From: Thermodesulfovibrionales bacterium
GTDB taxonomy: Bacteria > Nitrospirota > Thermodesulfovibrionia > Thermodesulfovibrionales > SM23-35
Direction: 5' to 3'
NCBI GenBank assembly: GCA_963715195.1
Contig: CAVQRT010000003.1
Location: 96,001 to 160,000, forward strand
Length of the DNA: 64,000 nucleotides
How positions within the stretch are numbered: the first letter of the stretch is position 1; every line of letters starts with the position of its first letter. A program made the translations under genes and the position numbers. Positions 1,739-39,395 of the stretch are shown one piece after another. A model generated the notes under the pieces. The model was not told the DNA's origin. It made no database searches and saw only the letters and a list, made by a program, of their open reading frames with translations.

Positions 1739-2413
1739 TCAGGAAACCTTTTCGCTTTCTTCTTCTTTTATCGCATATCTGCCTGGTCTCTGCTTTTTAG
1801 ACCAGTCCTTTGCACCGATTTCCTTTTTCAGTTCATTCAGCTTCCCCAGCTCTTTCATCCGTTCATAAATCCTGACCCATGCGCAGGGGACATCAGGACT
1901 TACTTCACACTTTCCCTTCTTGTTGCCGCCGCAGGGACCATTCAGAATGCCCTTTGGACATGATGTCACAGGGCATATTCCTCCGGTCATCCCGAGAACA
2001 CAATCTCCACAGGCAGCACAAATCTCAACCCATTTCCCCTGACCATCAGAGAGTCCGATGAACCGTGTATTCATTGCCGGTAAGACTACAACCTTCTTCA
2101 TCCACTCTGAAATACCCTGGACTCCCGCTCCACATGCCATCGAAAGCACGGCATCATACTGAGCAAATTCATCCTGTATCTGATGAATGAATTCCGGATC
2201 GCATTGACGGAGTATCGTCTTTTCACCGACGGTAATGTCACTTCCCTCTACGTTCCTTGCCATCCTGAGCGCAGAAGCCAACAGTTCCACTTGTCTTTCA
2301 CCCCCGCTCATGCAAACTGTTACGCAACTACCGCATCCCAGGACCAGTACCTTTTTATAGTCGATAACCATATCTCTGATCTCTTCAAATGGCTTGAGCT
2401 CTGCGACAATCAT
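1739..2413 (-). CDS. metV: Methylene-THF reductase small (Zn/FeS) subunit, MetV / MTHFR_C family
   Basis: GCGSCVTVC, RQCDPEF, MACGAGVQ, CAACGDCVL...GGICPVTSCPKGILNGPCGG...CEV...CAW; next to folD. Confidence 0.85.
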   Translation of the reverse strand: MIVAELKPFEEIRDMVIDYKKVLVLGCGSCVTVCMSGGERQVELLASALRMARNVEGSDITVGEKTILRQCDPEFIHQIQDEFAQYDAVLSMACGAGVQGISEWMKKVVVLPAMNTRFIGLSDGQGKWVEICAACGDCVLGMTGGICPVTSCPKGILNGPCGGNKKGKCEVSPDVPCAWVRIYERMKELGKLNELKKEIGAKDWSKKQRPGRYAIKEEESEKVS

Positions 2414-4431
2414 TCATCCACCTTCTTTCCTTTCCGCAATGGATTTATTCCCATGGTTTCAAGTCTCTCCCTGAAACCTGCAAAATCTTCTTCATGAGAA
2501 ATAACAGAGAGCCGGTCTTCACCCATCCCCGTTTCCTTCAGTATCCTTCTCGCTCTCTTCACATGCTCAGTCACCCAGTAGCTGCCTTTCCTGAAACGGC
2601 AGGCATCATCCGGGCACAGAGAGACGATCACACCGTCAGCACCAACCTCAAAAGGATAGATAATCTCTGACTCTTTCATCCGTCCCGTGCAGCCCCGCGC
2701 TATCCAGTATATCGCATCATCGTCAACAGGCGGGCCAAGGGGATCGTGATATCTGCAGTAATATCCGATAACCGCTATTTCAGGAATCTCCTCCCGCGCT
2801 CTATTCACAACACGCTCCACTTCCTGTCGAAAGTCATCGCGTCCGTCGTCTTTCAAATGGATCGCCGATGCGGGGCACTCTGCTGCACAGATACCGCATG
2901 CCTGACACTGGCTGATATCGATTTCTGCAATCTCCTTACCCGGCACGGGTATCTCGAATGGACAGATTCTCAGACAGTTAAGACAGGCTGCACAATTCGA
3001 ATCGACCGATGCCCCAGCCCCGCAATTCAGACATCTGAGAGCTTCTCTGCAAGCCTGATCACGATTATATCCAATATCCACCTCATCGAAGGTGCTTTTT
3101 CTTTGTTCAACAGGTAAAGCAGGCGCCTTTTGTCGCTCTGTTTTATGAATCATCTGAACAATCTGGTCATCCAATGATCGAAGCGAAACACGGTTATCAA
3201 CCAATTTGTCTTCGATACCGCGAAGGTAGAGATGCATTGCCCCTGATACTCTCCTTCCCGAGGCCATGGCCTCGATGACGCTCATCGGACCGGTTACAAC
3301 ATCGCCCGCAGCAAAAACGCCTTTCCTATCAGTAACGCCGGTATCATCGTTAACAATGATAGTTCCTTTCCTGTTCACCTTCAGCCCATCTTGTTTGAGA
3401 TGCTCGACATCAGGAATATATCCGATGGCCAGGATTACCGCGTCGGTCTCCAAATCAAATTCGGAATCTTTGATCGGGACAGGACGTCTTCTTCCAGATG
3501 AGTCCTGATCGCCAAGATCCATCTTGATAAACCTGCCACGCTGAACTGTACTTTGACCGGCAAACTCAAGCGGGGCAGCACGGTAAATAAATTTTATTCC
3601 TTCCATCTCAGCCTGCTCCACCTCTTCCCGTCCGGCCGGCATTTCTTCGATGGTACGCCGATAGACCACCGTAACATCAGGACACCCGAGACGGATACAG
3701 GTCCGTGCAGCGTCGAGCGCGGTATGCCCTCCTCCAATGACCAGGACTTTCTGACCCGGAGATGATGAATAACCTCTATCGATGAGCTTGAGAAATTCAA
3801 CACCTGACCAAATCCCGGGCAGGTCATCCCCCTTACATTTTGGATACAGACTTTTCTGGCTTCCAACCGCGATAAAGACAGCCTGATAATCCTTCAAGAG
3901 CCCTTCGATGGTAAAGTCTTTGCCCAGGGAAACGCCCGTCCTGACTTCTATCCCCAGAGAAAGAATACCGTCAATATCCTTTTGAACCGCCTCCTTGGGA
4001 AGCCTGTACTTCGGTATTCCCTCACTCAGCAGTCCGCCCAGGACTGGCTGAGCCTCGAAGATTGTTACCGCATAGCCGAGCAGCGCAAGATCGTGGGCTG
4101 CCACAAGACCGGTTGGCCCGCTTCCGATTATCGCAATCTTTTCATTGTATGAATTCAGTGGTTTTCCGGCGGAAATAAGATGATTCGCGTGATCCGACGC
4201 ATAGCGCTTCAAGGCCCTGATTGCAACAGGTGCATCCACCTGTGCCCTTCTGCATGCCGTCTCACAGAGCCTCGTACATATTCTCCCGCAGACTGACGGA
4301 AGCGGATTTACCCGTCGTATAATCCGGATCGCCTCATCCGCATCGCCCCGGGCAAGTGCAGATACATAGCCCCGCACATCGGTATTGATCGGGCACGCGG
4401 CCTGGCAGGGAGGGACGATGACCGTAGTCAT
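2410..4431 (-). CDS. GltD-like FAD/NAD(P)H oxidoreductase fused to a 2x[4Fe-4S] ferredoxin and an MvhD-like [2Fe-2S] domain
   Basis: PPCQAACP...CGRICTRLCETACRR; IIGSGPTG; VIGGG..ALDAAR; VYRR; FAAGDVVTGP; CAACLNCLRICP and CQACGICAAECP; C-terminal YYC...GCTGR...GADGV..SLCPDDACRF. Confidence 0.85.
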   Translation of the reverse strand: MTTVIVPPCQAACPINTDVRGYVSALARGDADEAIRIIRRVNPLPSVCGRICTRLCETACRRAQVDAPVAIRALKRYASDHANHLISAGKPLNSYNEKIAIIGSGPTGLVAAHDLALLGYAVTIFEAQPVLGGLLSEGIPKYRLPKEAVQKDIDGILSLGIEVRTGVSLGKDFTIEGLLKDYQAVFIAVGSQKSLYPKCKGDDLPGIWSGVEFLKLIDRGYSSSPGQKVLVIGGGHTALDAARTCIRLGCPDVTVVYRRTIEEMPAGREEVEQAEMEGIKFIYRAAPLEFAGQSTVQRGRFIKMDLGDQDSSGRRRPVPIKDSEFDLETDAVILAIGYIPDVEHLKQDGLKVNRKGTIIVNDDTGVTDRKGVFAAGDVVTGPMSVIEAMASGRRVSGAMHLYLRGIEDKLVDNRVSLRSLDDQIVQMIHKTERQKAPALPVEQRKSTFDEVDIGYNRDQACREALRCLNCGAGASVDSNCAACLNCLRICPFEIPVPGKEIAEIDISQCQACGICAAECPASAIHLKDDGRDDFRQEVERVVNRAREEIPEIAVIGYYCRYHDPLGPPVDDDAIYWIARGCTGRMKESEIIYPFEVGADGVIVSLCPDDACRFRKGSYWVTEHVKRARRILKETGMGEDRLSVISHEEDFAGFRERLETMGINPLRKGKKVDE

Positions 4432-10296: not shown

Positions 10297-11370
10297 TCAC
10301 GGCTTTCGCCGGGGCGACTGAAGAATCTCAATCTTTTCAATTACTTGTTTTAGTGCATTTATGAACATCCTGTTCTCTTCCCGTGTCCCGACCGTTACCC
10401 TGAGACACCCATCGACAACCCCCTTCATGTTCCGGACGAGCACACCGTTTTTCAGAAGGCCTTCATAGACCCTATCCGGGTTTGGTACCCTGAATAAGAT
10501 GAAATTTGCCTCTGAGGGATATGGCGTGATACCGTTCATTTGTGAGAGTTTGTAAAAGAGGGTTTCCCGCTCCGATACGATTATACGAATATTCCGCCTC
10601 ATCACCGCCTTATCCTTCATCGCTTTCAGGGCAACGACCTGAGAAAGGGCATTGAGATTGAACGGAAGCCTGACCTTGTTCACTTCATGAATGATGCTCT
10701 CTTCCGCAATGAGGAAACCCACCCTCAGTCCTGCCAATCCGACCTTGCTCAGTGTCCTTATAATGACAAGGTGCTCATAGTCGCGGAGCATCGGCATGAA
10801 ACCCCGGTTACTTGCAAAAGGCTGATACGCCTCGTCAACCGCAACGATCGCCTTGCCTTTTGCCGATTCGATGATCTTCAGTATGCTTTCTGCTGCAAAA
10901 CAATTTCCTGTCGGGTTATTCGGTGAACTTAGGAAAATCAGTTTCGGCTTATTTCGCCGAATCTCAATGAGCATTCTCTTCAGATCGAGATCGAATGCAT
11001 CATCAAGCCGGACACCGATTCTCTTCTCTCCGAGGGCCTGTGCGATGATGCCGTACATCGAAAAGGTTGGAACCGGGTAAAGCACCGGCCCGCCAAAGGT
11101 CGTTATGAGATAGTAAATGAGTTCATCCGATCCATTACCCTGAAGGATGTTTCCGGGTCTGATTTTCAGATCCTTTGCGATGGTTTTCTTCAGCGATTTT
11201 GCTTCGGGGTCGGGATACCTGTTTGTCTGGACAGACTGTATAATTTCTTTCGCAATAGTGAAGCCGAAAGGGCTTTCATTCGCATCGAGCTTTGCTATGC
11301 ATGGAATTTCTTTGGCCTGATAAGCCGACAAAGATCTGATATTCGGACGAATGAGTTTTTTGATGTTCAT
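10297..11370 (-). CDS. hisC: Histidinol-phosphate aminotransferase
   Basis: KLDANESP, NRYPDP, GNGSDELI, SPNNPTG, DEAY, RTLSKVGLAGLRVG; adjacent to hisB. Confidence 0.96.
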   Translation of the reverse strand: MNIKKLIRPNIRSLSAYQAKEIPCIAKLDANESPFGFTIAKEIIQSVQTNRYPDPEAKSLKKTIAKDLKIRPGNILQGNGSDELIYYLITTFGGPVLYPVPTFSMYGIIAQALGEKRIGVRLDDAFDLDLKRMLIEIRRNKPKLIFLSSPNNPTGNCFAAESILKIIESAKGKAIVAVDEAYQPFASNRGFMPMLRDYEHLVIIRTLSKVGLAGLRVGFLIAEESIIHEVNKVRLPFNLNALSQVVALKAMKDKAVMRRNIRIIVSERETLFYKLSQMNGITPYPSEANFILFRVPNPDRVYEGLLKNGVLVRNMKGVVDGCLRVTVGTREENRMFINALKQVIEKIEILQSPRRKP

Positions 11371-11412
11371 GCATGTGCATTATACCACAATAAATATGGT
11401 ATATTTAGTACC
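11371..11412. promoter_or_regulatory. Back-to-back extended -10 promoters, probably leaderless, for hisC and the hydrogenase
   Basis: Minus strand TGGTATAAT (11387-11379) lies 8 nt before the hisC ATG. Plus strand TGGTATATT (11397-11405) lies 7 nt before ATG 11413. No SD sequence. Confidence 0.55.
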
Positions 11413-13299
11413 ATGACTCAGGGCGAAGACCTTTTCGGCACAAGCTGCGAGAAAGATGAAGTCATCTTCAGAGAAGGTGATCAGGGCGACACCATGTATA
11501 TCATCCAGTCCGGGACTGTTGAGATCAGCCAGGATAAGGATGGCAAAAAACTTGTGCTTGCTCTCCTTGAGAAAGGCGACTTCTTCGGAGAGATGGCCCT
11601 GATTGACAAACACCTGCGTTCTGCCACCGCTGCAGCTGTCAGCAACAGCCGCCTTCTTCCCTTCACCCGCACGTCAATCATGGAGAGAATTCGCCAGGAT
11701 CCCGGGGTAGTCCTTCATCTGCTCACAACGCTCTGTCACCGGATTACGCAGACAAATCAGCGTCTGCATGCCATGGTGCAGAGTAATGAGGCATTACGAT
11801 CATTTGTTGAATCAAAAGGACAAATCCTTCCTGAATCAACAGAAAATGGCAGCAACTTCGAGACCTCGCCTTCTGCTGATATATCACCTAAATTCTCTGC
11901 AGATACCCATACGTCTGTTCTGCAAGAACCTCCAAAACGCACAGTTGATCTCAGCATACCACATGAAGAATGCATCCTTGTTGAAAACGGAAAAGCTGTT
12001 TTTCACCAGGGCGACCACGGGAATTCGCTCTACATCATCGTCGAGGGAGGCGTGGAGATCAGTCAGGGACCCGAAGATGACAGGAATGTCCTGGCATATT
12101 TAGGTCCCGGGGATTTCTTCGGTGAGACAGCGATGATCACTGATCAGCCCCGAACTGCTCATGCCTTTGCATTAGGAAAAACATACCTGTTCCCGATTAC
12201 CAAAGATGATTTTTTGGAGCAGTTCAAGACGAAACCGGAGCTTGCGCTATATATCCTTCAGGGACTAATCATCCGCCTCAGGGGATTGCTGGCAGTTTTA
12301 AATGATCCCACAAAATCCATTTCGACTGTGATACAAGCCTTTCCACCCCCCCTGAAAAAGAAAAGTCTGATTAGGACTGCCCTTGTCTCTCTTTCCACCT
12401 GCGGGGGCTGCGCAGCGGTTCTGCTTGAAGACCAGGATGAGCTTGCCCGTCTTCTGAAGCGCGTGAATATCTCCTACTGTCCCATGCTGATCGATGCGGA
12501 GGAACTTGGGGAGGTTGATGTTGCTGTTGTTGACGGAGTTGTGAGGGTAAAGGAAGACGAGGAAAAGATCAAAGAAGTCAGACACAAGAGCCGTTACCTC
12601 GTAGCGTGGGGTACCTGTGCCGCATCGGGCGGCATCCCCGCATATGCAAACCAGCACGAACTGGAAGAATTGATCGAAGAATCATACGGACATGCAAAGG
12701 ATCCTTTTGCCTATTATCTCTCCGGGAGCCGGGGTATTGACGGCGCAACCTACCAGGAACAGGAAAACGAACTGCAACTTCTCCGCCGTTCCCAAAAGCT
12801 GGATGACTTTGTGAGGGTCGACTACTACATTCCCGGTTGTCCGCCGAACGCCCGCCTCCTGAATCTTCTCGTGGATGAACTCAGGGGAGACGGACAGGCT
12901 GAGAAACCAAAATCGATTGTCTGCGGCGAGTGCAGCAGGAAGCATGTCAAAGCAACCGTCGAACATTTTTATATGTTCCCGCGACCGGACTGGGATGTGA
13001 GGCACTGTTTCACTTCACTGGGTGCTGTCTGCCTCGGCTTCATGACCAAGGGCGGATGCGGTGCTGTCTGCCCTCGCGGTGGTCTTCCCTGCTGGGGTTG
13101 CCGCGGACCATCCGAGACCGTCTTTAAAAAAATGGAAGAAGGGAACAGTTTTGAAGAATATATGGTTGATGCGTTTATCGCACGCCACCGCCATCTCGAG
13201 GATCAGATCAGGCCGGTTTTGAAATTATTTCGCAAGAATGCAAACAGCCCTGTGCCGTTCAGCCGGCATGCTACCAATGACAGATCGAGGATCAGATGA
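11413..13299 (+). CDS. Tandem cyclic-nucleotide-binding domains fused to a group 3 (MvhG-like) [NiFe]-hydrogenase small subunit
   Basis: CNB1: IFREGDQGDTMYIIQSG...FFGEMALIDKHLRSATA. CNB2: VFHQGDHGNSLYIIVEG...FFGETAMITDQPRTAHA. Then STCGGC, WGTCAASGGIP, IPGCPP, VCGEC...CF...CLG..TKGGCGAVCP...PCWGCRGP. Confidence 0.9.
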   Translation: MTQGEDLFGTSCEKDEVIFREGDQGDTMYIIQSGTVEISQDKDGKKLVLALLEKGDFFGEMALIDKHLRSATAAAVSNSRLLPFTRTSIMERIRQDPGVVLHLLTTLCHRITQTNQRLHAMVQSNEALRSFVESKGQILPESTENGSNFETSPSADISPKFSADTHTSVLQEPPKRTVDLSIPHEECILVENGKAVFHQGDHGNSLYIIVEGGVEISQGPEDDRNVLAYLGPGDFFGETAMITDQPRTAHAFALGKTYLFPITKDDFLEQFKTKPELALYILQGLIIRLRGLLAVLNDPTKSISTVIQAFPPPLKKKSLIRTALVSLSTCGGCAAVLLEDQDELARLLKRVNISYCPMLIDAEELGEVDVAVVDGVVRVKEDEEKIKEVRHKSRYLVAWGTCAASGGIPAYANQHELEELIEESYGHAKDPFAYYLSGSRGIDGATYQEQENELQLLRRSQKLDDFVRVDYYIPGCPPNARLLNLLVDELRGDGQAEKPKSIVCGECSRKHVKATVEHFYMFPRPDWDVRHCFTSLGAVCLGFMTKGGCGAVCPRGGLPCWGCRGPSETVFKKMEEGNSFEEYMVDAFIARHRHLEDQIRPVLKLFRKNANSPVPFSRHATNDRSRIR

Positions 13300-14597
13300 G
13301 CAAGAAGATTATCTTTCAGAAAGCCACACGCATCGAGGGCAATGCAAATATTCAGGTTGAGGTCGACAGAGGCAGCGTCAAGACAGCCCGTTTCATGGTC
13401 CAGGAATTCCGTGGCTTTGAAGGGTTCATGCGCGGTACCCGAGTCGAGTATGTCCCCCATATGGTGTCCAGGATCTGCGGCCTTTGTTCATCGGCACATC
13501 AGGTAGCATCCATTAAGGCCGTCGAGGAAGCACTTGGCGTTCAGACACCGCGCTCGGTGAGTGCCCTGCGTGAGATTCAAGTCCTCGGAGAGTGGATCAA
13601 CAGCCATGCCCTGAGTTATTTCTTTCTGACCATGCCGGACTTTGTCGGAGCTTCGTCAGGAATCTTCGAACTCTTGCAGAGCCACCCGGAGATCACCAAA
13701 GAAGCCTTTGCCCTGCGCGATGCGGGATTGAAAATCGTGAGGCTCCTCGGGAAACGCACATCCCATGCGGTTACGACGGGGGTCGGCCGCTTTTTTGCAG
13801 ATCCCGATCACAATGACCTCGAAGAAATTCGTGCTATCGCATCCGACGTAAAAGAACGTTCCCTGCGGCTTATTGGTCAGGTCGGGAACATTCACCTGAC
13901 TTCAAAAAGCATTCCCTTTCCCCCTGACCAGCAGATCAACTTTGTAACATATGACGGCAACCCTGCTAAAGATGTTTTCTGCGTATACAACCAGTCCGGA
14001 GCCCTCGAATTGTGCTTCAGCAGGTCAGAGTTTATGGACAATATATCGGAACTGAGGGCAGACTGGACACTGGCTAAATTTCCGTATCTGACGAAGCTGG
14101 GGTTCCCTGCCGGGATTATGCTGGTCGGCCCGCTTTCGCGCAGTTTTCAGGAAAACGGTTTTTTACACGATAAGGATTTGTCGAACCTCGAACTCGCCGC
14201 CCTGCTGCGCGACCGCACATCGCTGACACTCGAAAGCTACGATGCATGCCGCCTTCTTGAGATATACTCGGCGGCAAAGAAAATCCTCCATCTCCTCGAT
14301 GAGGTCGATCTTTCACAGATGAGCGCAGAGGTTGACCTGAAATCAAGCGGACAGGGTATCGGGGTGCTCGAAGCGCCGCGGGGTATCCTCATGCACAGCT
14401 ATTTAGTAAATCAGGGCAAGATCGAACGTATGCGCCTCATGGTCGCCACGCAGTTTAATAATGCGTATATCAATCTCCTCCTCAGGGATCTTGCCGAAAA
14501 ACATCTCGACGGAGACAGCATTTCAGCGGAAGGTGAAAGACTCATCGGCCGCTGTGTGAGGATATTCGACCCCTGCCTCAGTTGCGCCACACATTGA
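13296..14597 (+). CDS. [NiFe]-hydrogenase large subunit, group 3 (MvhA-like)
   Basis: TRIEG, RGFE, L1 motif SRICGLCSSAH, EAPRG.L.H, L2 motif RIFDPCLSCATH followed directly by stop; ATGA overlap with the small subunit gene. Confidence 0.92.
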   Translation: MSKKIIFQKATRIEGNANIQVEVDRGSVKTARFMVQEFRGFEGFMRGTRVEYVPHMVSRICGLCSSAHQVASIKAVEEALGVQTPRSVSALREIQVLGEWINSHALSYFFLTMPDFVGASSGIFELLQSHPEITKEAFALRDAGLKIVRLLGKRTSHAVTTGVGRFFADPDHNDLEEIRAIASDVKERSLRLIGQVGNIHLTSKSIPFPPDQQINFVTYDGNPAKDVFCVYNQSGALELCFSRSEFMDNISELRADWTLAKFPYLTKLGFPAGIMLVGPLSRSFQENGFLHDKDLSNLELAALLRDRTSLTLESYDACRLLEIYSAAKKILHLLDEVDLSQMSAEVDLKSSGQGIGVLEAPRGILMHSYLVNQGKIERMRLMVATQFNNAYINLLLRDLAEKHLDGDSISAEGERLIGRCVRIFDPCLSCATH

Positions 14598-15141: not shown

Positions 15142-15594
15142 ATGAAACTTGATGACATAAGAGCTTTAGCCGAAAGACATCATATACTCCTTATCTATGT
15201 CTTTGGCTCACAGGCAGAAGCGGGGAAAAGATACCTTGAAGGCGAAAATATGATGCCCGAAGATGCTTCCGACCTTGATGTGGCAGTTCTCCTTGACGCA
15301 CCTCCTCCACAGGCCATTGAGATCTATGGGATTCTTTACAGGGAATTCTCAATAATATTTGATCCTTTTGCCATTGACCTCATATTGCTGCATGAAGCAA
15401 ATCCCCTCTTTCAATACGAAATAATTAAGGGGTTCCGGATCTATGAACGAGATGAAGTCTCTGCTGATGACTATGAGGAAAACGTAATGAAGAGGGCTGA
15501 AGACCTCTCCTATAATAAAAGGATTCTCGATAACGAAATCATGGAGTCAATAGAGAATGGTTATTTCGAATTTGAATACAGCCCGAATCCTTGA
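15142..15594 (+). CDS. Minimal nucleotidyltransferase (MNT/MntA-type antitoxin)
   Basis: YVFGSQA...SDLDVAV, IDLILL; overlaps a downstream HEPN gene. Confidence 0.85.
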   Translation: MKLDDIRALAERHHILLIYVFGSQAEAGKRYLEGENMMPEDASDLDVAVLLDAPPPQAIEIYGILYREFSIIFDPFAIDLILLHEANPLFQYEIIKGFRIYERDEVSADDYEENVMKRAEDLSYNKRILDNEIMESIENGYFEFEYSPNP

Positions 15595-16012
15595 ACTCCT
15601 GAGATTTATCGAGAACTGTGTTCAGGAGCTGAAGCCTTTTTCAACTCTTTCAAAAGAAGATTTTCTTGCAGACAGGAAGAATCCCCCCTTCGTGGAAAGC
15701 TACCTCAGGAGAGGTCTTGAGGCTGTATTTGATATCGGAAGACATATCCTTGCGAAGACATCTGGTTTTAAAGAAATAGAATACAAAGCCATTGCGAGAG
15801 AACTTGGAGAAAAGGAAGTTATTACAAAAGAACTCTCTGAAGTATTGTACATAATGGCAGGATACAGAAATCGCATGGTTCATTTTTACAGAGAAATCAC
15901 TTCTGAGGAGCTTTATCATATTACTGCGAATAATCTGAAAGATTTCGAAAGCTTTATCAGAGAAATTGTCTCATTTATAAGAGCATACGAAGGGAAAACC
16001 AAGACAGGTTAG
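15557..16012 (+). CDS. HEPN/DUF86 RNase toxin (HepT-type)
   Basis: Rx4H motif GYRNRMVHFY; EAVFDIGRHI. Confidence 0.88.
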   Translation: MVISNLNTARILELLRFIENCVQELKPFSTLSKEDFLADRKNPPFVESYLRRGLEAVFDIGRHILAKTSGFKEIEYKAIARELGEKEVITKELSEVLYIMAGYRNRMVHFYREITSEELYHITANNLKDFESFIREIVSFIRAYEGKTKTG

Positions 16013-16023
16013 AACCACTTTTA

Positions 16024-16443
16024 TTACACGTCGTTAATATGTCTTTTCAAAAACTTCTCTATCGCCTTCACAGCTTCATCTTTAAACTGTGCGGGACTTT
16101 GAGCTATCCAGACAGTAAAGTTGTAGAGCTCCTTGATATCGGCCACTAACCATTTCTTGTTTGCGAAAAGAAACGTAAAGAGCGTTGTTATAGCAATCCT
16201 TTTATTCCCGTTTTCAAATGGATGGTTTTTGATCATGAGATAAAACAGCGTGCCCGCCCTTGTAAGGAACCCGGGGTAAAGGAATTTTCCTTCAAACGTT
16301 TGGAAAGGCGCTGCCAAACAGCTTTCCAGAATATTTGGCGCACGTGTCGAGAAGTCTGGAATGGGTTCGTTGAATGCCAAGAGTGCCTGGGCCATCTTAT
16401 GCGTTATATGTTCGACATCTTTCACGGTAACTCTCTTGACCAT
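16024..16443 (-). CDS. Doc/Fic family toxin
   Basis: LESCLAAPFQTF, Fic motif HPFENGNKR. Confidence 0.88.
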   Translation of the reverse strand: MVKRVTVKDVEHITHKMAQALLAFNEPIPDFSTRAPNILESCLAAPFQTFEGKFLYPGFLTRAGTLFYLMIKNHPFENGNKRIAITTLFTFLFANKKWLVADIKELYNFTVWIAQSPAQFKDEAVKAIEKFLKRHINDV

Positions 16444-16446
16444 CTG

Positions 16447-16713
16447 CTATTCTCTGCCAAGGAGTTTCAGTAATTCCCCGTATTCCTGAAATGTTTTCTT
16501 CACGGCTCGATCGATAAGTTCCTTGTCCTCCTCACTCAACGTTTTGCCTGTAATGTCGGTTACATACTTTCTGGGGATTGCATAACTTCTTCCTATTCTG
16601 ATGGCTTTTATTTGTCCTCTTTTAATTTTTTGGTAGATAGCGATTCTGCTCACTCCCAGAATTTTCGCGAACTCCGCAATTGAAATATATTCGCCTTTTC
16701 CCATAGACCCCAT
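16447..16713 (-). CDS. Excisionase-type HTH protein, probable antitoxin/regulator of Doc
   Basis: YISIAEFAKILGVSRIAIYQKIKRGQIKAIRIGRSYAIP; C-terminus EYGELLKLLG resembles Doc-antitoxin tails; directly upstream of doc. Confidence 0.7.
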   Translation of the reverse strand: MGSMGKGEYISIAEFAKILGVSRIAIYQKIKRGQIKAIRIGRSYAIPRKYVTDITGKTLSEEDKELIDRAVKKTFQEYGELLKLLGRE

Positions 16714-19178: not shown

Positions 19179-22100
19179 CTATTTCTTATGAATAATAATT
19201 GAACCACCTCCGATAATCGTTGCAGGGTCATCTGTATCAGGAGCACCCATCTTATTGTCATAGACAATCTGGTCAGTATCCTTGTCCCAAATCTTGATCC
19301 TGAACTTATCGTACCGTCCGCCGCCTTTATTTGACCGTCAATCGCGGTCAGCATGAAGCCGTAGTTTCCTGTGCCGTTGATTGTTCCGGTCACCTTTGTA
19401 CTGTGCTCTCGGTCCTGCAACTACAAGCCATTCATAAGAATCTGAATGGAATTTCAGATCTGCAACTTTGAACTGGAATTGAGTTTCGCCGGTCGGAATC
19501 GTCGCACCTTTCTTGTACTTGGATACGAATCCAAAGGTTGCTTTGCCAGTGAGGTCTGTATCGGCCGCGTAGGCTCCATCAGGTGAATCAATCCATCCCC
19601 CGCCGGTCACAAAACCGCCATCCGGATCATACACAACGATATATTCAAAACGCCCCGTGTCAGTTTCATCATGATTGTCTGTAACCGTGAGTGTTACAAC
19701 ATAGACACCGGGTGTACTATATTCATGTGAACCGGTCACTGTTCCGGAACCATTTGATTCATCGACAGTCCCAACCGTTGTCGAGTCGTCGCCCCAATCC
19801 CAAACAGCAGTGTGGACATCTTCGTATTAGCGTCTGTAAACTGTGCACTCGTTGATATGGTTGTATCTACTTGAACAGGATCAATTGGTGCTGTAATCAC
19901 ATCAACAACGGGTGGTACATTAGCTGAGATAACTCCAAAGCTTGCGCCTATTGTGTGATCGGTTGTCACATTGTGGAAGGTGTAGCTCGCGACCACACCC
20001 ACTGAAGTACCGTCGACAAGAACATCTACTATGTAACAGCCCTCTGCAGGCGAAATTGTAAATTCCTGACTTTCCCCCTCAGGAACCGCTGCATACACTG
20101 TCGGACTGATACTTCCATTAACGCATTCTGTCACTGTTATCACATAGGTATCCGCTGCGATCACGGTTACCGGGCTCTCCCCTGAGTGGATCGCCCCCAC
20201 CCACAGGTCTACACACGGTTCCGGCCCGCGATGTGCACACACCTGCGCCGGACAAGGTCAGGATCCGTAATGTAGTTCGAGTAGGTCGCCTCTACCGTGT
20301 AAGCCCCTACCCCCAGCACCGACGGATCGTACATATCCCTTAGGTCGCAGCTCACCGAGAACGACGCCCCCGCTGCCAGCGTCATTACGTCGTCCGGTAT
20401 CCCGTAGGCATGCCACACCCGGTCCCGCGGCGGCAGGACATCGCCCAGGCCGTCCCTCACCGTGAAGGTCGTGTTGTAGCAGTCAGGCGTGATGATCTCT
20501 ATCGCACTGCCGCTCTGGTTCCAGAAGATGGCCTCCACCATCAACGCCTCCCCTTCCCGCGTCGGTACAGCCGGCACCTCCAGTTCCTCGGTGTTTGCGT
20601 CACACGCATCGCCCAGCCCGTCGCCGTCACTGTCTGTCTGCGATGCATTGGCCACCAGTGGACAGTTATCATCAGGTCCGGTACCCCGTCCCTGTCTGTG
20701 TCGATGAGGTCTAATCCGCACAGTCCTGGTCTATCCCGTCATTTGGTATCTCGGCGACCGGGTTCAGGAGTACAGGTATAGGTGTGTACTCCTCCCGTGC
20801 GGTCTGCACCCCGGCTGCTGCCATGCTCCCACTCCACAATGTGCATCCCCATCCCAGCTCTCTCGAGCCGTGCTCCGTTAATGCATCCGGTCATGTCTTC
20901 GTGTCGCAGACCTCCGTCGCACCCGGGTGATCGAGCTGTACCGTCGTACAGTCATCCCCGCCGTAGGCAACCGAGATATATCCGTGTCGATCCCCGTCGA
21001 GCTCGCAAAGCTCGCCTCTATCGCATGATCAGCCGTGACGTTTATAAATTCATAGGTCGTTACTGCTCCTACTGATACCCCATCAACCAAGACATCCTCC
21101 ACGTGGTAGCCCGTATCAGGGGTTATGGTAAAGGTCTGGTTATTGCCCGAGGTTACCAGCACGTACCCTGACGGATCAGTCGGCGTAATGCTCCCGTTAG
21201 CACCCGCTGTCACTGTTATCACATAGGTATCCGCTGCGATCACGGTTACCGGGCTCTCCCCTGAGTGGATCGCCCCCACCCACAGGTCTACACACGGTTC
21301 CGGCAGCGAGTGCACACACCGCCCGGACAAGGTCAGGATCCGTAATGTAGTTCGAGTAGGTCGCCTCTACCGTGTAAGCCCCTACCCCCAGCACCGACGG
21401 ATCGTACATATCCCTTAGGTCACAGCTCACCGAGAACGACGCCCCCGCTGCCAGCGTCATTACGTCGTCCGGTATCCCGTAGGCATGCCACACCCGGTCC
21501 CGCGGCGGCAGGATGCTGCCCAGTCCGTCCCTCACCGTGAAGGTCGTGTTGTAGCAGTCAGGCGTGATGATCTCTATCGCACTGCCGCTCTGGTTCCAGA
21601 AGATCGCCTCCACCATCAACGCCTCCCCTTCCCGCCTCGGCACTGCCGGCACCTCCAGTTCCTCGGTGTTTGCATCACACGCATCGCCCAGCCCGTCGCC
21701 GTCTGTATCATCCTGCGATGCATTGGCCACCAGTGGGCAGTTGTCCTCTGTGTCCGGTACCCCATCATTGTCTGTGTCGATGAGGTCTAATCCGTCACAG
21801 TCCTGGTCTATCCCGTCATTTGGTATCTCGGCTACCGGTGTGCCAGGCGTACACGTGTCATCCTGTGCTCCGGCTGTACAGGTAAGTACTCCGGCTGCTG
21901 CACATGCTCCCACACCGCATGATGTCGCATCCCCATACCAGCTCTCTCCTGAGCCGTCCTCCGTTAATGCATCACAATCATTGTCTATCGTGTCGCAGAC
22001 CTCCGTCGCACCCGGGTTGATCGAGGCATCTGTGTCATCGCAGTCTGTATCGTCCGCCACATATCCGCCAGGTACAGTACACGCCTCGGTGCTCGCTGTA

Positions 22101-25100
22101 GGATCACCATAGGTGTCTCCATCGCTGTCCAGATAGAAGGTTGTCAAAACTCCGTTATCTACAACACCGTCACAGTCGTTGTCCAATCCGTCGCAGATCT
22201 CTGCCACCGATGTGCCGGGTGCGCAGGGAGTCTCAACTCCTGCCACGCAACTGCTCGGGGTATTATTGGTCAGGCACTCGCCAACTCCGCAGGTGTCATC
22301 TACAACGTAATCCTCATCAGCTGCACCATCGCAATCATCATCCACACCGTCACACGTGGCATCGTCTGCTGCCGGTGTGCCAGGAGTACAGGTATCAACT
22401 TGTACTCCTCCCGTGCAGGTCTGCACCCCGGCTGCTGCACATGCTCCCACTCCGCATGATGTCGCATCCCCATACCAGCTCTCTCCTGAGCCGTCCTCCG
22501 TTAATGCATCACAATCATTGTCTATCGTGTCGCAGACCTCCGTCGCACCCGGGTTGATTGAGCTGTCACCGTCGTCACAGTCATCCCCGCCGTAGGCAAC
22601 CGAGATATATCCGTCTCCATCCCCATCAGAGCTTGCAAAGCTCGCCTCTATCGCATGATCAGCCGTGACGTTTATAAATTCATAGGTCGTCACTGCTCCT
22701 ACTGATACCCCATCAACCAAGACATCCTCCACGTGGTAGCCCGTATCAGGGGTTATGGTAAAGGTCTGGTTATTGCCCGAGGTTACCAGCACGTACCCTG
22801 ACGGATCAGTCGGCGTAATGCTCCCGTTAGCACCCGCTGTCACTGTTATCACATAGGTATCCGCTGCGATCACGGTTACCGGGCTCTCCCCTGAGTGGAT
22901 CGCCCCCACCCACAGGTCTACACACGGTTCCGGCAGCGATGTGCACACACCGCCCACAAGGTCAGGATCCGTAATGTAGTTCGAGTAGGTCGCCTCTACC
23001 GTGTAAGCCCCTACCCCCAGCACCGACGGATCGTACATATCCCTTAGGTCACAGCGTCACCGAGAACGACGCCCCCGCTGCCAGCGTCATTACGTCGTCC
23101 GGTATCCCGTAGGCATGCCACACCCGGTCCCGCGGCGGCAGGATGCTGCCCAGTCCGTCCCTCACCGTGAAGGTCGTGTTGTAGCAGTCAGGCGTGATGA
23201 TCTCTATCGCACTGCCGCTCTGGTTCCAGAAGATGGCCTCCACCATCAACGCCTCCCCTTCCCGCCTCGGCACTGCCGGCACCTCTAGTTCCTCGGTGTT
23301 TGCATCACACGCATCGCCCAGCCCGTCGCCGTCTGTATCATCCTGCGATGCATTGGCCACCAGTGGGCAGTTGTCCTCTGTGTCCGGTACCCCATCATTG
23401 TCTGTGTCGATGAGGTCTAATCCGTCACAGTCCTGGTCTATCCCGTCATTTGGTATCTCGGCTACTGGTGTGCCAGGTGTACACGTGTCATCCTGTGCTC
23501 CGGCTGTACAGGTAAGTACTCCGGCTGCTGCACATGCCCCCACTCCGCATGATGTCGCATCCCCATACCAGCTCTCTCCTGAGCCGTCCTCCGTTAATGC
23601 ATCACAATCATTGTCTATCGTGTCGCAGACCTCCGTCGCACCCGGGTTGATCGAGGCATCTGTGTCATCGCAGTCTGTATCGTCCGCCACATATCCGCCA
23701 GGTACAGTACACGCCTCGGTGCTCGCTGTAGGATCACCATAGGTGTCTCCATCGCTGTCCAGATAGAAGGTTGTCAAAACTCCGTTATCTACAACACCGT
23801 CACAGTCGTTGTCCAATCCGTCGCAAATCTCTGCCACCGATGTGCCGGGTGCGCAGGGAGTCTCAACTCCTGCCACGCAACTGCTCGGGGTATTATTGGT
23901 CAGGCACTCGCCAACTCCGCAGGTGTCATCTACAACGTAATCCTCATCAGCTGCACCATCGCAATCATCATCCACACCGTCACACGTGGCATCATCTGCC
24001 GCCGGTGTGCCAGGAGTACAGGTGTCATCACCCCATACTCCAGCCGTACAAGTCTCTTCCCCAGTAGAAGCACAGGCGCCTATTCCACAAGTTGATGGAC
24101 GAGTAAGTTCTTCATCAGTACTTCCATCGCAGTCGTTATCTATGTTGTCGCAGCCCTCTGCAGTAGCACCTGCCAATGGATCACACGTGTCATCGCCCCA
24201 TACTCCAGCCGTACAAGTCTCGATTCCCGTGTTGCCTGCGCACTGGCCGACACCACAGGAAGTAATTTGGGTGATCCCGTCTATCGTTCCATCACAATCA
24301 TTATCTATGTTGTCACATACCTCGGTTGCACCCGGGTTGATTGATGAATCGCCATCATTGCAATCTTCTTCTGTAGCAGAGCCTGTACATCCAATTATTA
24401 CGCCTACTCCATAGGTGTCACCATCTACATCCAGACATGTATCCACAGGATCGCATATGCCATCTCCATCATCGTCAGGGCCCTGAGATGCATCTCCATA
24501 AACATTAGGAACATGACTAACAGGATCAAAATCAGAAATGCAGTTATCTGCAAGATAGAGGGTTTGTAAATTTATTAGACTACTTAGTGCTGCTATGTCA
24601 GATATTTGATTGCTGGATAGAACCAGAACAGTCAGACTGCTCAGATTTGACAATGCAGAGATGTCAGATATCTGATTGCTGCCAAGATTTAGATCAGTCA
24701 GACTGGTCACATTTGATAATGCTGCTATAGCAGCTATCTGATTACTGGATAGAACCAGCTCAGTCAAACTGGTCAAATTTGACAATAAAGAGATGTCAGA
24801 TATCAGATTGTTGTTCAGATAAAGATGAGTCAGACCGGTCACATTTGTTAATGCTGCTATATCAGCTATCTGATTGCTGGATAGAACCAGAACAGTCAGA
24901 CTGCTCAGATTTGACAATGCAGAGATATCAGATATCTGATTGCTGCCAAGATTTAGATGAGTTAGACTGGTCAGATTTGATAATAAGGAGATGTCAGATA
25001 TCAGATTAGCGGTTAGAACCAGAGTAGTCAGACTGCTCAGGTTTGACAATGGAGTGATGTCAGATATCTGATTGCTGTCTAGATAGAGAGTAGTCAGACT

Positions 25101-28100
25101 GCTCAGATTTGATAATGAAGAGATATCGGATATCTGATTGCGTGATAGAAGCAGAACAGTCAGACTGCTCAGATTTGATAATGAAGAGATATCAGATATC
25201 TGATTGGTGTCCAGATAGAGCTCAGTCAGACTGGTCACATTTGATAATGCTGATAAACCAGATATCTGATTGTTGTTCAGATTTAGATAAACCAGACTGC
25301 TCAGATTTGATAATGAAGAGATATCGGATATCTGATTGCTACTCAGATTCAGATGGGTCAGATTAATGGCATATTCGAGGCCTGTAAGATCAACGACTCC
25401 TTTATTAGTGGCACCAAGGGTAATTAAATTAAGCATGTCAGCAACAGTCGGATCAGAAACACCCAGTTCCGTCTCTATCGCTGCCTTGAGGTTTGCATCG
25501 GGGATATTAACCGGACAGGGATTATCAATAATGTCGTCGCAGTCATTATCCAACCCGTCGCACGTTGTCTCGGTAGCTTCGTAAGTTGCGATACCGCTGT
25601 AGTCATTAACCCAGCCGCCTGCCCCGCTACAGGTCTTAGTTGAGCCTGAGCAGACGCCGTCCTGCAGGTCATTGAGCGGAGCAGTAAGGCCGTTGTCAGT
25701 AGTTCCATCACAGTCATTGTCTAATCCATCACATATTTCAGCTCCAGGTGTTCCAGGTGTACACGAATCTTGTACAACTCCTGCAACGCAACTCGTTACG
25801 CCTGTTGATGCACAAGCACCTACTCCGCAGCTGGTGGCCGTCGATACATAGTCTTCATCAGCTACACCATCGCAATCATCGTCTGTACCGTCACACGTGG
25901 CATCATCTGCTGCCGGTGTGCCTTCAGTACAGGTATCAACTTGTACTCCTCCCGAACACGTAAGTTGACCAGCTGCTGCACATGCCCCCACTCCGCATGA
26001 TGTCGGATCTCCGTACCAGCTCTCATCAGAGCCATCAAGAGTACCTGCATCACAATCATTGTCTATCGTGTCGCATACCTCCGTTGCGCCCGGGTTGATT
26101 GAGGAATCGGTATCATCGCAGTCATCCCCCATAGGCCCTCATACCCATCACCGTCTGCATCGATATCACAGGCATCGCCTATACCATCCGTATCTGAATC
26201 TTCCTGGCCTGGATTGCTATCATCAGGACAGTTGTCACAGACATCGCCTATGCCATCACCATCCGTATCGCCCTGAGCAGGATTAATATCATCAGGGCAA
26301 TTGTCGCACAGATCGCCTATGCCATCAGTATCTGAGTCTGCCTGATCGGGGTTATAATCATCTGGACAGTTGTCAGAAGTATCACCAACGCCATCGCCCT
26401 GATATCGATAGATGTCCCAGGAACTGCCATTATATTTCTGCCAAACAATTCTATTTGAAAAGACAGTCGGGTAATAGTTAGCCGAGGAATCCGTTGTTAC
26501 TCGGTGAGGTGGTATTGCAGGCGTAGATAAATCATATTCGTAGATATCATAGTTACCGTGAGTGGAATCCTGCCAAACAATAATGTTCCCAGAGATAGAA
26601 GGTGCTTTTTGATCATAAATACTGTCGGTAATCTGGGTTTCAATCCCCGTCGAAATCTCATACATATAAATGTCCCATCGGCCATCCCTAAAATCTTGCC
26701 AGACGATTCGGTTTCCTGAGATTGTCGGTGCTTCTTGATTTCCTGGCTCATCGGTTATCCGGGTTTCAACCCCTGTCGAAATGTCATACAAAAAAATGTC
26801 ATAATTGCCATATCTGTCGTCCTGCCAGACGATTTGGTCTCCTGAGATAGCCGGTTGTGATGAAGTCGAAATGTCGGTAGTAGTATTGACCTTGGTCTCT
26901 ATCCCAGTAGATATATCATACAGGAACACGTCCCATCTGCTCGCGCCGTTATCATAATTGTAGACAATGCGATTTCCTGATATCCGCGGATAAGATTGTG
27001 TTTGTGCATCGGAAGTTATCCGAGTTTCAGCTCCGTCGAACATGTAAATGTCCGTATTGCCATGCCTGTTATCGTGCCAGACGATACGGTCACCTGAAAT
27101 AGATGGTCTCTCCTGACTTCCCGGGTCACTGGTTATCCGGCTTTCAGACCCGTCATATGAATAAATTTCAAAGTCGCCAACTCTGTAATCTTGCCAGACA
27201 ACCCTATCCCCCCAAATTGAACTTAAGACGAAAAAGCCGGTGTTGGTATCAGCAACATCTTCCCTAATCCGGGTCTCACTTCTGTCAGAGTCTCGGCTCT
27301 CATTGTCATCCAAAGGAAATGCATCATTGAGGTCATCTACTCCATCACCGTCTGAGTCTGAATTCAATGAGTTAGTCCCGAAGACTGATTCTTCATAATC
27401 CGTGAGTCCATCGCCATCATCATCTGCGTCTAAGCAATCATCTATCCCATCAGAATCAGTATCACCCTCGTCAACTTCACTATCACAGTCGTTGTCTATT
27501 CCATCGCATATCTCCGTAGCATCCGGATTTATGGATGAATCACCGTCATTGCAATCCCCCTCACATATCCTAAAGCCATCGGTGTCAGCATCCGCTTCAT
27601 CAATAGGCACTTCCGTGTCACAATCATTGTCTATCCCATCACAGAGCTCTGTTGCACCCGGATATGTATTGCCGTCATTGTCATCACAGTCAGTTTCAAG
27701 ACCGGTTAGCTCTGTTGAAACTTTATAACCCGCTGGTCTTTCACATGACGTGTTATCAACGGTTTGATCCGAGTATCCATCATCATCCGCATCTTTCCAC
27801 CAAGTCTGCCCAGGATGCTCGTTCGGATCAGCGTCATCACAATCAGTATTGTCAGCAACATATCCTCCTGGTGCAGAACATGCCTGAGTAGTTACCGAAG
27901 GATTGCCATAGGTGTCGCCATCGCTGTCCTGATAGAAAGTCATCAGAACTCCATTATCAACACTGCCGTCACAGTCATTGTCCAACCCATCACACGTTGT
28001 CTCGGTAACTTCATAAGTTGCAATACCGCTGTAATCATTAACCCAGCCGCCTGCGCCACTACAGGTCTTAGTTGAGCCCGAGCAGACGCCAGCCTGTAGG

Positions 28101-31100: not shown

Positions 31101-32278
31101 CATCACTGTCAGCGGTAAAGTAAATAGTGTTTCCTTCACCCGAGTGTCCCGTTTGCATTCAGTGTCCCACTGATATAAAAACGCACCTTGGATGCAAACT
31201 TGATGACGACACCTGGATCTATCGTAAGGGTAACACCGCTGTTGACCGCAACTTCGCCTTTCAGATAGTAAACCCTGCTGCTCTGCCACGCGGCGTTGGA
31301 GTAAACAGTTCCAGCCACTACATATACCGGCTCTGTCGGGAGGATACCGTCATAGATTTGAGCTGCATTTGCACCGTCCGGAGAAAACCCCATGGACCCT
31401 GAGGTATTGCCGCTTGCGTTAGCAGCAGTAAAGCTATCTATAGTCGGGGCAGATGTGCCATCAACATAAATACCAAAGCCTCCGTTATCCTGAATGGTGC
31501 AATTCTGCAAGGTTGGATTGCTGTTCAAAAGGGTTATCCCGTTTGCGTTGATGAAGTTGCTTATGGTGACGTCTGACAATGCAACTCCGCTACCTGCATC
31601 TATGAGATATATTCCACTGTAATAGTCTAGTGCCACTGACATTAGTCGTTATAGTTGTGCCACTGACAGTATGAGTACCTGCTGAGCTATATATCTCGAC
31701 TCCATATCCAGTTGTGTCGGTTGACTGTAGAGTTGGTATGGTGAGGCTACCTGCACCCACTTTAAAATTGCTCTCTTATAACTCGCTCCACCGGTATACC
31801 TCACTTCAGTGTAATTCAGTGTCGCCGATCCGTTCCGTATACACAGAGATACCTGCCCACCAGCCTGCTACTCCGGAGCTCGGAACCATCACCATTAGAT
31901 GTCTCCAGTGGCCAAGGCAGTGTATCATCACGGTAGTCGGTGAAGTAGATCTTGTTTCCGAGGGTCCCGTTTGCGTTCAGCGTTCCATATACTCGCAAGG
32001 TATTTGTTTTGCGCGAACTTGACAACAACACCCGCTTCTATATCGAGGGAAACACCCGCTGTTGACAGTAACATTGTCGACGACATAGTAAGGACTGTTT
32101 GCGAGTGTCCACGTTGTATTCGTGGATATAGATCCGGAGACAGTTGTGGTTGCATTCAGAACAGAAGGCACTATGATTCCCGAGACAAGAAAGGCGAAAA
32201 TAAAAACGATAAAGCTTCTGCATATTACGTTTCTATTTCTTATCGATGCCTTTCAAAGAGTTCCTTGCCCTTTTTCAT
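19179..32278 (-). CDS. Giant mosaic surface/adhesin protein (~13.1 kb, many frameshifts): beta-helix, LamG-like, SbsA-type Ig, TSP3/MopE Ca-binding repeats, beta-propeller, internalin-like LRR, InlB B-repeat-like, repeated unknown domain, PKD and C-terminal domain
   Basis: Contiguous same-strand ORF fragments from 31977 down to 19175 with no intergenic gaps; signal-like RSFIVFIFAFLVSGIIVPSVLNA; C-terminus GGGSIIIHKK* at 19179. That this is a single gene is an inference. Confidence 0.7.
20130..24023. repeat. Long near-identical intragenic tandem duplication (period 1630 bp, plus a partial third copy at ~1080 bp offset)
   Basis: Antisense ORFs 21564..22112 and 23194..23742 are nearly identical; 21001 matches 22631; 20161 matches 21240. 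Confidence 0.9.
24540..25430 (-). repeat. About 13-14 internalin-type 22-aa leucine-rich repeats (66-bp units)
   Basis: Repeated LTxLxLxxNQISDISxLSNLSS, preceded by the cap VNIPDANLKAAI. Confidence 0.9.
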
Positions 32279-38626: not shown

Positions 38627-39395
38627 TTACACCCTTATCGTATCCCCATCCTTCAATATCCTCATGTGCATGAGGCTGAGTTTCTTCAGTTCATTTTTGA
38701 TAATTCCTTGATACTGTGGTTTTAAATGCGTAATACAGAGCTGCTCCGGTTTCTGTTGTATTTTCGCCAGTTCTTTTACCAGCAATTCCGGCGTCAGGTG
38801 TCCGCTTCGTAACGCCATTGCGCTCAAGGCATTGGGGAATGAAACGTCGATGATGAGGCAATTCAGTTTCTTATTCCCGAGTTTTTCCCACGTTCTTGCA
38901 GACGGCCCCGTATCCCCGGTATAAAAAAATATTCTACTCTTTCCATCTTCGACAAGATATCCAACTGCTGATACAGTGTGATTCACCTCGTATGGAGTAA
39001 TGGTGTAACTGTTCACACGGATTGATTTCCCGGTCGAGAGCTTCACAAGGTTCAGTATCGCATCGTCAGGCTTGGGGAGGATCGTAAATCGGGCCACATG
39101 GCGCTGTTGAACAAGTGCTCCTTTATCATTCTTAAAACCGGGGGGATACGATAGAGCGAGACTTTATTCTGTTTTTTTGAAACGATAATATTATCGGCAA
39201 GAAATGGAATGCTTGCGATGTGATCAAGGTGCGCATGAGTGATGAAGATATGTTTTATTTTCATCTGAGCCTTTTCATCCAGCGCCCCGGTAAAGCTTCC
39301 TGCATCGAATATGATTTCTTCATTCAGAAAGAAAACTCGGGGGTCTTATGCCCCGGCAATTCCGCACCCGAACAGCCTATGACCTTGATTTTCAT
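38627..39395 (-). CDS. Class II (metallo-beta-lactamase fold) 3',5'-cyclic-nucleotide phosphodiesterase, frameshifted
   Basis: MKIKVIGCSGAE, FITHAHLDH, HLFNSAMWPD, VNHTV, YTGDTGP, SFPN, GHLTP, ITHLKP. Confidence 0.85.

Follow-up and report, generated by a model that had tools for sequence, protein, structure and literature searches.

Hydrogenases are, as far as we know, controlled by transcription, maturation and redox inactivation, and we found none in the literature that is directly controlled by a cyclic nucleotide. The question whether an enzyme of this kind might be is raised by a stretch of 64,000 nucleotides from a Thermodesulfovibrionales bacterium (assembly GCA_963715195.1, contig CAVQRT010000003.1, positions 96,001 to 160,000; the whole stretch is called the window here and its first letter is position 1). 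At 11413–13299 on the forward strand one gene joins two cyclic-nucleotide-binding (CNB) domains to the small subunit of a [NiFe]-hydrogenase, and the large-subunit gene follows at 13296–14597 on the same strand. The fusion marks a lineage of group 3 [NiFe]-hydrogenases that is real, conserved and apparently undescribed; no published account of it was found in the literature, with subscription journals and preprint supplements outside the coverage. On balance, and with some reserve, we favour the reading that this hydrogenase is gated by cyclic AMP (cAMP) through a CRP-like pseudo-dimer.

Architecture of the fused hydrogenase

The first gene encodes 628 amino acids in an uninterrupted frame, as a preliminary description of the locus had it. 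Pfam finds cNMP_binding in two stretches of the protein (E 4e-47), and Oxidored_q6 (E 3e-25). CNB-A covers residues 8–133 (11434–11811) and CNB-B residues 181–298 (11953–12306). Between them lies a variable linker, residues 134–180 (11812–11952), which has a column conservation of 0.24 and is predicted to be disordered (predicted local distance difference test score, pLDDT, below 50 at residues 140–175). Residues 320–628 (12370–13296) form an MvhG-like, three-cluster small-subunit core. The phosphate-binding cassettes of both CNB domains are intact, as had been claimed: GEMALIDKHLRSA is found at residues 59–71 and GETAMITDQPRTA at residues 237–249. The iron-sulphur cysteine motifs described for the core are also complete. 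C330, C333, C402 and C476 are followed by eight further cysteines spaced 3, 25, 8, 9, 4, 7 and 3, and these twelve cluster cysteines and C356 are each kept in at least 119 of 120 homologues. The closest PDB match to the core is MvhG (5odc_E, residues 320–572, E 1e-47). The C-terminal 56 residues have no alignment to MvhG; this C-terminus is specific to the family and ends in an invariant arginine.

The active-site motifs of a [NiFe] large subunit supply a glutamate, a canopy arginine, four metal-binding cysteines and a terminal histidine. All of them are present in the second gene product (433 residues, Pfam NiFeSe_Hases), in which these residues are E14, C61, C64, R362, C427 and C430 and the last residue is H433, so that no C-terminal extension follows. 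Its top PDB matches are 7t2r, 5odc (group 3c, E 7e-54) and 5xf9. The two frames overlap by the four bases ATGA, in agreement with the translational coupling proposed earlier. No twin-arginine translocation (Tat) motif or transmembrane stretch was found in either subunit, and the GC content at third codon positions of both genes lies within about 1.5 standard deviations of the genome mean.

The junction between the CNB and hydrogenase parts (12250–12400) was checked on assembled contigs from other samples rather than on raw reads, in a comparison that left 90 single-letter differences unlisted. Contigs from two samples (X1, 11200–13527; X5, 12034–12852) cross it without gaps, and a third (X3) reaches 12400. 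These contigs and the conserved fusion refute an assembly chimera. RNA run X20 says nothing on transcription, as its contigs were all short and fell on 15 of 30 bins.

Distribution of the family

Both Pfam domains are present in 119 of the best 120 homologues (of 968 passing E 0.001), at 46–98% identity; the sole exception is a fragment of 368 residues. Another assembly encodes a 628-residue protein that is 98% identical (P0001), and the ESM Atlas holds a 53-member cluster, with an automatic name, in which both domains occur. We collected 102 loci, 22 from genomes and 80 from metagenomes (the best 80 of 123). By their record labels the carriers are Nitrospirota, Desulfobacterota-type deltaproteobacteria, Chloroflexota and Acidobacteriota, and the closest ones are Nitrospirota of the Thermodesulfovibrionales (68–88% identical). 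The sequencing runs that contain the stretch are mainly estuary and marine sediment metagenomes. Occurrence is patchy: the fusion was found in five of 60 relatives of the source genome and was absent from another 250 genomes of Anaerolineae.

The 5' end of the small-subunit gene is visible in 55 loci. CNB-A, CNB-B and the small subunit form a single frame in 51 of them, and in the other four CNB-A lies upstream, parted by a frame change or an IS110 element. Two apparent single-CNB forms (L006 and L019) were rejected, as CNB-A is found upstream in another frame (L019, and likewise L124 and L174) or severed by the IS110 transposase (L006). A further 77 short homologues mostly look like fragments from short contigs; two of them, P0308 (313 residues, 43%) and P0294, may be genuine unfused small subunits of the family.

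Placement within group 3

The large subunit belongs, by its sequence, among group 3. In a tree of 161 rows the 18 family rows and two unlabelled representatives form one clade with a stem of 0.52 (Shimodaira–Hasegawa-like approximate likelihood ratio test, SH-aLRT, 100). It falls on the 3c/3d side of group 3 (96) and outside the group of sampled MvhD-linked and HoxH sequences (94). A tree of 30 rows rooted on 3b-like sequences agrees (100 and 98). These are quick LG+G4 trees without bootstrap that hold no rows of 3a, 3f, 3g, group 1 or group 2, and the frameshifted L007, L009, L011, L015 and L022 were dropped by a motif filter. An approximately unbiased test gave p 0.003 against nesting in 3c, but 3c itself is not monophyletic in that tree, which makes the test non-specific. 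Two tailed large subunits, P0125 and P0126, are sisters of the family in the large tree (98) and not in the small one; they may be a sister group.

The six active-site motifs are complete in all 77 full-length family frames. A C-terminal tail is found at none of the 89 loci that show the last motif, all of which end at the histidine; the remaining 13 do not show that motif. A profile search found no gene for the maturation protease HycI at any of the 102 loci, and mvhD/hdrA at one (L182). Neither the absent tail nor the scarcity of partner genes featured in the preliminary description. Identical profiles applied to 63 control group 3 loci found MvhD at 13, HoxU at 19, HydG at nine and HycI at 28. 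Among diaphorase genes, HoxU was found at no family locus and a HydG-like gene at one (HoxF and HydB had no profile). At L182 (1–9305) an hdrA-mvhD-X-hdrC-hdrB-flx-like run precedes the hydrogenase on the same strand, with 130 bases between them.

The preliminary description likened the small subunit to MvhG of group 3c, which HydDB defines as heterodisulfide reductase-linked (PMC5037454) and where the F420-non-reducing MvhAG(D)/VhuAG hydrogenase (PDB 5odc) belongs. The likeness holds: 5odc is the best sequence and structural match of the core, the eight cysteines of the source genome's own MvhG are spaced 3, 28, 8, 9, 4, 7 and 3, and the distance from GGIP to PGCPP is 68 in the fused subunit and 67 in that MvhG. 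HoxY of group 3d, with its proximal cluster only, has none of these eight cysteines. Membership in 3c does not hold, because the family is a separate clade, has no tail in 89 of 89 cases and has a partner gene near only one of 102 loci; it also differs in its tandem CNB domains, its C-terminus and the lack of a protease gene. The NCBIfam scores, 167 and 187 bits, fall far under their cut-offs of 450 and 800. Nearest-neighbour labelling would probably still call it 3c. The three-cluster MvhG cysteine pattern is common to a second, unrelated clade of orphan hydrogenases (L222–L231, L030 and L031), and is therefore not diagnostic of 3c.

The source genome has a separate, ordinary HdrA-MvhD-MvhG-MvhA operon on contig C14, with a tailed large subunit. 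In this MvhA (G000:C14:4427-5908) a lysine replaces the arginine at the start of the L1 motif; several relatives among L032–L044 are apparently alike, although the change was seen directly only in the source genome.

The second orphan clade bears on the published 'Group 3e' of Anaerolineae (bioRxiv 10.1101/2021.08.23.457424), which is described as an orphan two-gene enzyme near 3c/3d without accessory genes. The fused family is likewise an orphan of this placement, but it is not unique to Anaerolineae, and the 250 further genomes of that class lack it. The second clade has tail-less large subunits and unfused three-cluster small subunits in a two-gene layout, is common in Anaerolineae and also occurs in two relatives of the source genome. 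It has neither signalling nor electron-partner genes beside it; its neighbours include a UbiB-type kinase and an NAD-dependent epimerase, both types named in a figure legend of the preprint. As it is the commoner Anaerolineae orphan and two neighbour types match, the published 3e is probably this second clade and not the CNB fusion; the main text of the preprint, at least, never uses 'cyclic' or 'cAMP'. An identity of the fused family with 3e was set aside on these grounds as improbable. A second paper uses 'group 3e' for a sulfate-reducer lineage called 'periplasmic' (PMC9723726), whereas the fused proteins have neither Tat motif nor transmembrane stretch. Groups 3f and 3g are described as archaeal hybrids; in one of them an [FeFe] domain is joined to a small subunit of group 3 (PMC11216029).

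The CNB domains

The cassette of CNB-A contains G59, E60, R69 and S70, and is followed by a long C-helix (residues 98–123 in the model) with R110, T114 and N115. CNB-B has G237, E238, R247 and T248, and its C-helix, with R288, L289 and R290, runs into the hydrogenase domain. All 110 homologues that span this part of CNB-A have G59, E60 and R69. In CNB-B, G237 and E238 are found in every one of 119 homologues, and R247 in 117 of 119. These Gly, Glu and Arg residues are predicted to bind the cyclic nucleotide. The C-helix arginines are as well kept, R110 in 113 of 114 and R288 in 120 of 120 homologues; T114 is found in 74 and N115 in 69 of 114. CRP is reported to read cAMP through R82, S83, E72, T127 and S128, and GlxR has an asparagine for S128 (PMC10187061). 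We placed T114 and N115 opposite the last two positions by their spacing from the arginine, so that the correspondence is a putative one.

The ratio of non-synonymous to synonymous substitution (dN/dS), taken against two close loci, is 0.16 for CNB-A, 0.08 for CNB-B and for both hydrogenase parts, and 0.64–0.83 for the linker; by this measure both CNB domains are under purifying selection. Across 18 sampled proteins all CNB-A sequences group together, as do all CNB-B sequences, which makes the pair an old one.

In the PDB, the CNB-A cassette and helix are matched best by Bd1971 (6hq2–6hq7), a cyclic di-GMP phosphodiesterase of Bdellovibrio that is described as activated by cAMP and cyclic GMP, with a CRP-like C-helix dimer (PMC6717892). 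The conserved cassette and C-helix residues line up with residues of Bd1971 that contact the ligand; in our own mapping M59, D63, S68 and R108 of Bd1971 would correspond to M61, D65, S70 and R110. In Bd1971 and CRP two chains make up the dimer, and it controls an EAL or a DNA-binding domain, whereas here two unequal CNB domains stand in one chain before a hydrogenase. Residues 1–300 modelled alone gave a pLDDT of 83 and a predicted template modelling score (pTM) of 0.78 despite a disordered stretch of 36 residues, which suggests a fixed packing of the two domains. The model does not superpose on the tandem CNB domains of PKA or PKG (template modelling score 0.34 or less).

Cyclic nucleotide genes near the hydrogenase

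A flank of at least 2 kb is available at 56 loci. Within these flanks a class III cyclase was found at 13 loci, a class II phosphodiesterase-like gene at 10, another CNB gene at 18 and a PP2C phosphatase at eight. A cyclase, phosphodiesterase or other CNB gene is present at 31 of the 56, or at 25 of 49 after clustering at 95% identity and 21 of 36 at 80%. Among the 22 genome loci, the flank retrieved includes a class III cyclase at seven (one of them, L022, is a remnant), against 0.33 expected from the cyclase count of each genome. The sole cyclase of one complete chromosome (G065) lies about 10 kb from the large subunit. No cyclase or phosphodiesterase was found at 12 loci of the second orphan clade (106 kb) or at 63 other group 3 loci (300 kb), where CNB genes occur at two; the control loci are mostly only about 4 kb long. 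Co-occurrence by genome is uninformative for the phosphodiesterase, which is present in 46 of 61 relatives.

The neighbouring cyclases vary in architecture and carry CHASE2, REC, FHA, GAF or AAA-TPR domains. Since these architectures differ between phyla, the association seems to have arisen repeatedly rather than as one inherited block, though the Nitrospirota cases are related. Most of the cyclases have a lysine at the specificity position, which we take to mean ATP as the substrate. A scan of the neighbours of the 22 genome loci (L001–L022) found one PAS histidine kinase, at L018.

The preliminary description placed a cyclic-nucleotide network near the hydrogenase. Linkage holds across the loci of the family; in the window itself the signalling genes lie 18–36 kb downstream, and those at 18–27 kb are broken. 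All are on the minus strand and count as context of the hydrogenase cassette rather than as members of it. A CNB-Ser/Thr kinase (32822–34225) has one in-frame stop, with an intact copy of 467 residues on contig C5 of the source assembly; a class II cAMP phosphodiesterase-like gene (38627–39378) is split into two frames and a class III nucleotidyl cyclase (39564–42054) into six pieces, and both have intact copies on contig C4, of 255 and 833 residues. A CNB-GAF protein (50714–51625) contains the nearest sampled outside relative of CNB-A (SH-aLRT 94). On C4, a strain-like copy, the 3' end of a second large-subunit gene lies about 580 bases from the intact phosphodiesterase and cyclase.

The region 14600–50600 and its counterparts on C4 and C5 are three strain-like copies, 87–97% identical, of an island of signalling and surface-protein genes. 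The copy in the window has many frameshifts, and about 21 kb separate hydrogenase and phosphodiesterase here and not on C4. The specificity position holds a lysine in the intact C4 cyclase but a glutamate in the window copy (39564–40313, minus strand), which may be decay, error or a shift toward GTP. CNB domains fused to other partners were seen by the cassette at further loci (L009:9557-11215, L159:9303-13941, L132–L133): a CNB-GNAT acetyltransferase, two SulP-STAS-CNB transporters and a CNB-rhodanese.

Maturation genes

HypD is encoded by 19 of 22 carrier genomes. The source assembly (G000) has HypC, and hypB, hypD, hypE, hypF and HycI were not found in it. Genes that we take to be ribD-, pdxJ- and gltB-like from their sequences flank hyp in relatives; they are missing from the source assembly as well, and all genes of the hyp region at four related loci are missing or weakly matched there. 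Because these housekeeping genes are absent too, an unassembled piece is likelier than gene loss, and a loss of maturation in the source organism was rejected. The assembly has strain-like duplicates and 6.6% contamination. It is rated 97.8% complete and lacks this region, which is a caution against absence claims drawn from completeness scores.

Relation to other hydrogenases with CNB or sensor modules

The preliminary description knew of no characterised hydrogenase with CNB domains. There is one precedent: HoxI of Cupriavidus necator's soluble, NAD+-reducing hydrogenase (group 3d) is annotated as a CNB protein, is 27% identical to CNB-A and 23% to CNB-B, and places a CNB-fold module on a group 3 hydrogenase. 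HoxI is described as a dimer on the diaphorase that serves NADPH activation (PMC3702609, PMC12319191). It is a separate homodimer with a histidine where the cassette arginine sits, whereas the CNB domains here are part of the iron-sulphur subunit and keep the arginine, and the family has no diaphorase. Stand-alone CNB genes are also reported in 3b clusters (PMC13332983).

Sensory hydrogenases of groups 2b and 2c had been called characterised; for 2c this needs correction, as HydDB lists it as putative (PMC5037454). The regulatory hydrogenase of group 2b (HoxBC-HoxJ) lacks the tail, as the fused enzyme does, and naturally tail-less hydrogenases are reported to use the Hyp machinery (PMC7294309). 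Links to signalling genes are a further likeness to group 2b, putative group 2c and the PAS-fused [FeFe] hydrogenases of group C, and in group C a sensor domain is fused to the enzyme. The fused family differs from all three, being of group 3, with CNB in place of PAS and no fixed kinase or cyclase partner; its best hits are to group 3 and not group 2, and no dedicated histidine kinase like that of 2b was found among the neighbours of the 22 genome loci.

Proposed gating by cAMP and its alternatives

The preliminary description offered two readings of the fusion, allosteric gating and H2 sensing. Gating fits better; neither is shown. We picture a [NiFe]-hydrogenase of two subunits in the cytoplasm, a separate lineage beside 3c/3d, for which a cyclic nucleotide, most likely cAMP, would be the allosteric switch. 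Host Hyp proteins would insert the NiFe site without a protease. CNB-A and CNB-B would pair in one chain through their C-helices, as the halves of a CRP or Bd1971 dimer do; ligand binding would swing the domains against these paired helices. The change would be relayed by the CNB-B C-helix, whose end lies about 30 residues ahead of the CxxC of the proximal cluster. The relay may gate electron flow, subunit assembly or the binding of ferredoxin, an MvhD-type protein or Hdr-Flx as a redox partner in trans. That the enzyme receives cAMP is the simplest reading because a CNB domain fused to a catalytic domain is the input in the closest solved case, because the CNB-B helix runs into the segment of the proximal-cluster cysteines, and because no fixed output partner exists in a cassette or a longer fusion. 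The sequences establish the anatomy and the gene context; ligand binding, activity, the direction of signalling and the electron partner are inferred from them. Binding of cAMP may activate or inhibit the enzyme, which in turn may consume or produce H2.

Several observations weigh against gating. CNB-B has hydrophobic residues in place of the Thr/Asn base-recognition pair. The putative pseudo-dimer is deduced from pTM and motifs, and the model of the full-length small subunit (pTM 0.55) gives no support to a docking of the CNB domains on the hydrogenase domain. Linkage places the genes in cAMP islands but does not tell which way the signal runs, the Nitrospirota loci are interrelated, and a cyclic nucleotide neighbour is kept in only nine of 20 clusters at 70% identity. 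The lack of an electron-partner gene at 101 of 102 loci is odd for a metabolic enzyme. The missing hyp genes of the source assembly count here as well, as do the 12 of 102 loci that are fragmented, where decay and sequencing error are indistinguishable; with the patchy distribution these fragmented loci suggest that the enzyme is dispensable.

The missing partner keeps alive an alternative that we consider unlikely, in which the protein is an H2 or redox sensor. Turnover would be slow, and the redox state of the clusters would alter the shape of the CNB domains or their affinity for cAMP, and so act on a neighbouring cyclase, phosphodiesterase, kinase or phosphatase. Signalling neighbours, including PP2C at eight of 56 loci, would suit such a role, as would the lack of a tail as in group 2b and the invariant Leu63 of the L1 motif, whose equivalent we take to narrow the gas channel in other hydrogenases. 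Against it, the cyclases vary and no output partner is fixed, the CNB is an input domain in the closest solved relative, and no longer fusion with an extra output domain was found among 2273 candidates, which is weak evidence. The tail-less orphan layout was rejected as a mark of sensors, since the second orphan clade has both traits without signalling neighbours; tail-less 3b-type enzymes exist too. A two-way H2-cAMP junction is similarly doubtful; in it the single-chain CRP-like dimer would link the redox state of the clusters to cAMP occupancy, and the sensor would feed back on a neighbouring cyclase, phosphodiesterase or CNB-kinase.

The remaining alternatives seem less probable still. We regard it as improbable that the ligand of the CNB pair is not a 3',5'-cyclic nucleotide but, for example, a nucleoside or the NAD(P)H proposed for HoxI, or that the pair binds no ligand and serves for docking. 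The one CNB-fold subunit of a hydrogenase that has been studied, HoxI, is linked to activation by NADPH, nucleoside binding by CNB domains is reported (PMC10959531), and CNB-B lacks the Thr/Asn pair; but HoxI is without the cassette arginine that both domains here keep and sits on a diaphorase that this family lacks, and the linkage to cyclases and phosphodiesterases is specific to the fused clade. It is quite improbable that the protein is an ordinary 3c-like enzyme that replaces MvhAG on the host MvhD/HdrA or Hdr-Flx when cAMP permits, the CNB pair timing assembly. The MvhG-like cluster set, the genes for HdrA-MvhD-MvhG-MvhA and for an MvhD-fused oxidoreductase (window 2410–4431) in the source genome, and the layout of L182 speak for it; the single partner locus among 102, against the MvhD and HycI counts at the controls, and the C-terminal residues that do not align with MvhG speak against it. 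A metal-free or decaying relic, or a chimera of assembly, is scarcely credible: the fragmented loci and the state of the source assembly are set against complete motifs in every full frame, the low dN/dS of the large subunit, HypD in most carriers, the near-universal fusion among homologues and the bridged junction.

Other features of the window

Upstream of the hydrogenase, on the minus strand, 2410–4431 and 1739–2413 hold an FAD/NAD oxidoreductase that has a 4Fe-4S domain and is fused to an MvhD (FlpD) domain (2410–4431), by a MetV-like gene and FolD and with a CooC-like ATPase further up; the whole looks like a methylene-tetrahydrofolate reductase module of the Wood-Ljungdahl pathway. Directly downstream of the hydrogenase (15142–16713) a nucleotidyltransferase-HepT pair is followed by Fic/Doc and a small helix-turn-helix gene on the other strand. 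Large repeat-rich surface proteins occupy 19700–31650 (minus strand), with MopE-like metal motifs, thrombospondin-3 repeats, leucine-rich repeats, beta-propellers and beta-helices, and a 1.6-kb tandem duplication at 20765–24027.

Implications

If cAMP gates the enzyme, H2 cycling would be under a further, new level of control in anaerobes from sediments that belong to at least four phyla. The family would then be a group 3 subgroup that has no name so far, and nature would offer in it the design of a two-gene hydrogenase that a ligand can switch and that needs no protease. A two-way junction, if real, would be a third route of H2 sensing beside the histidine-kinase-linked 2b and the PAS-fused [FeFe] group C enzymes.

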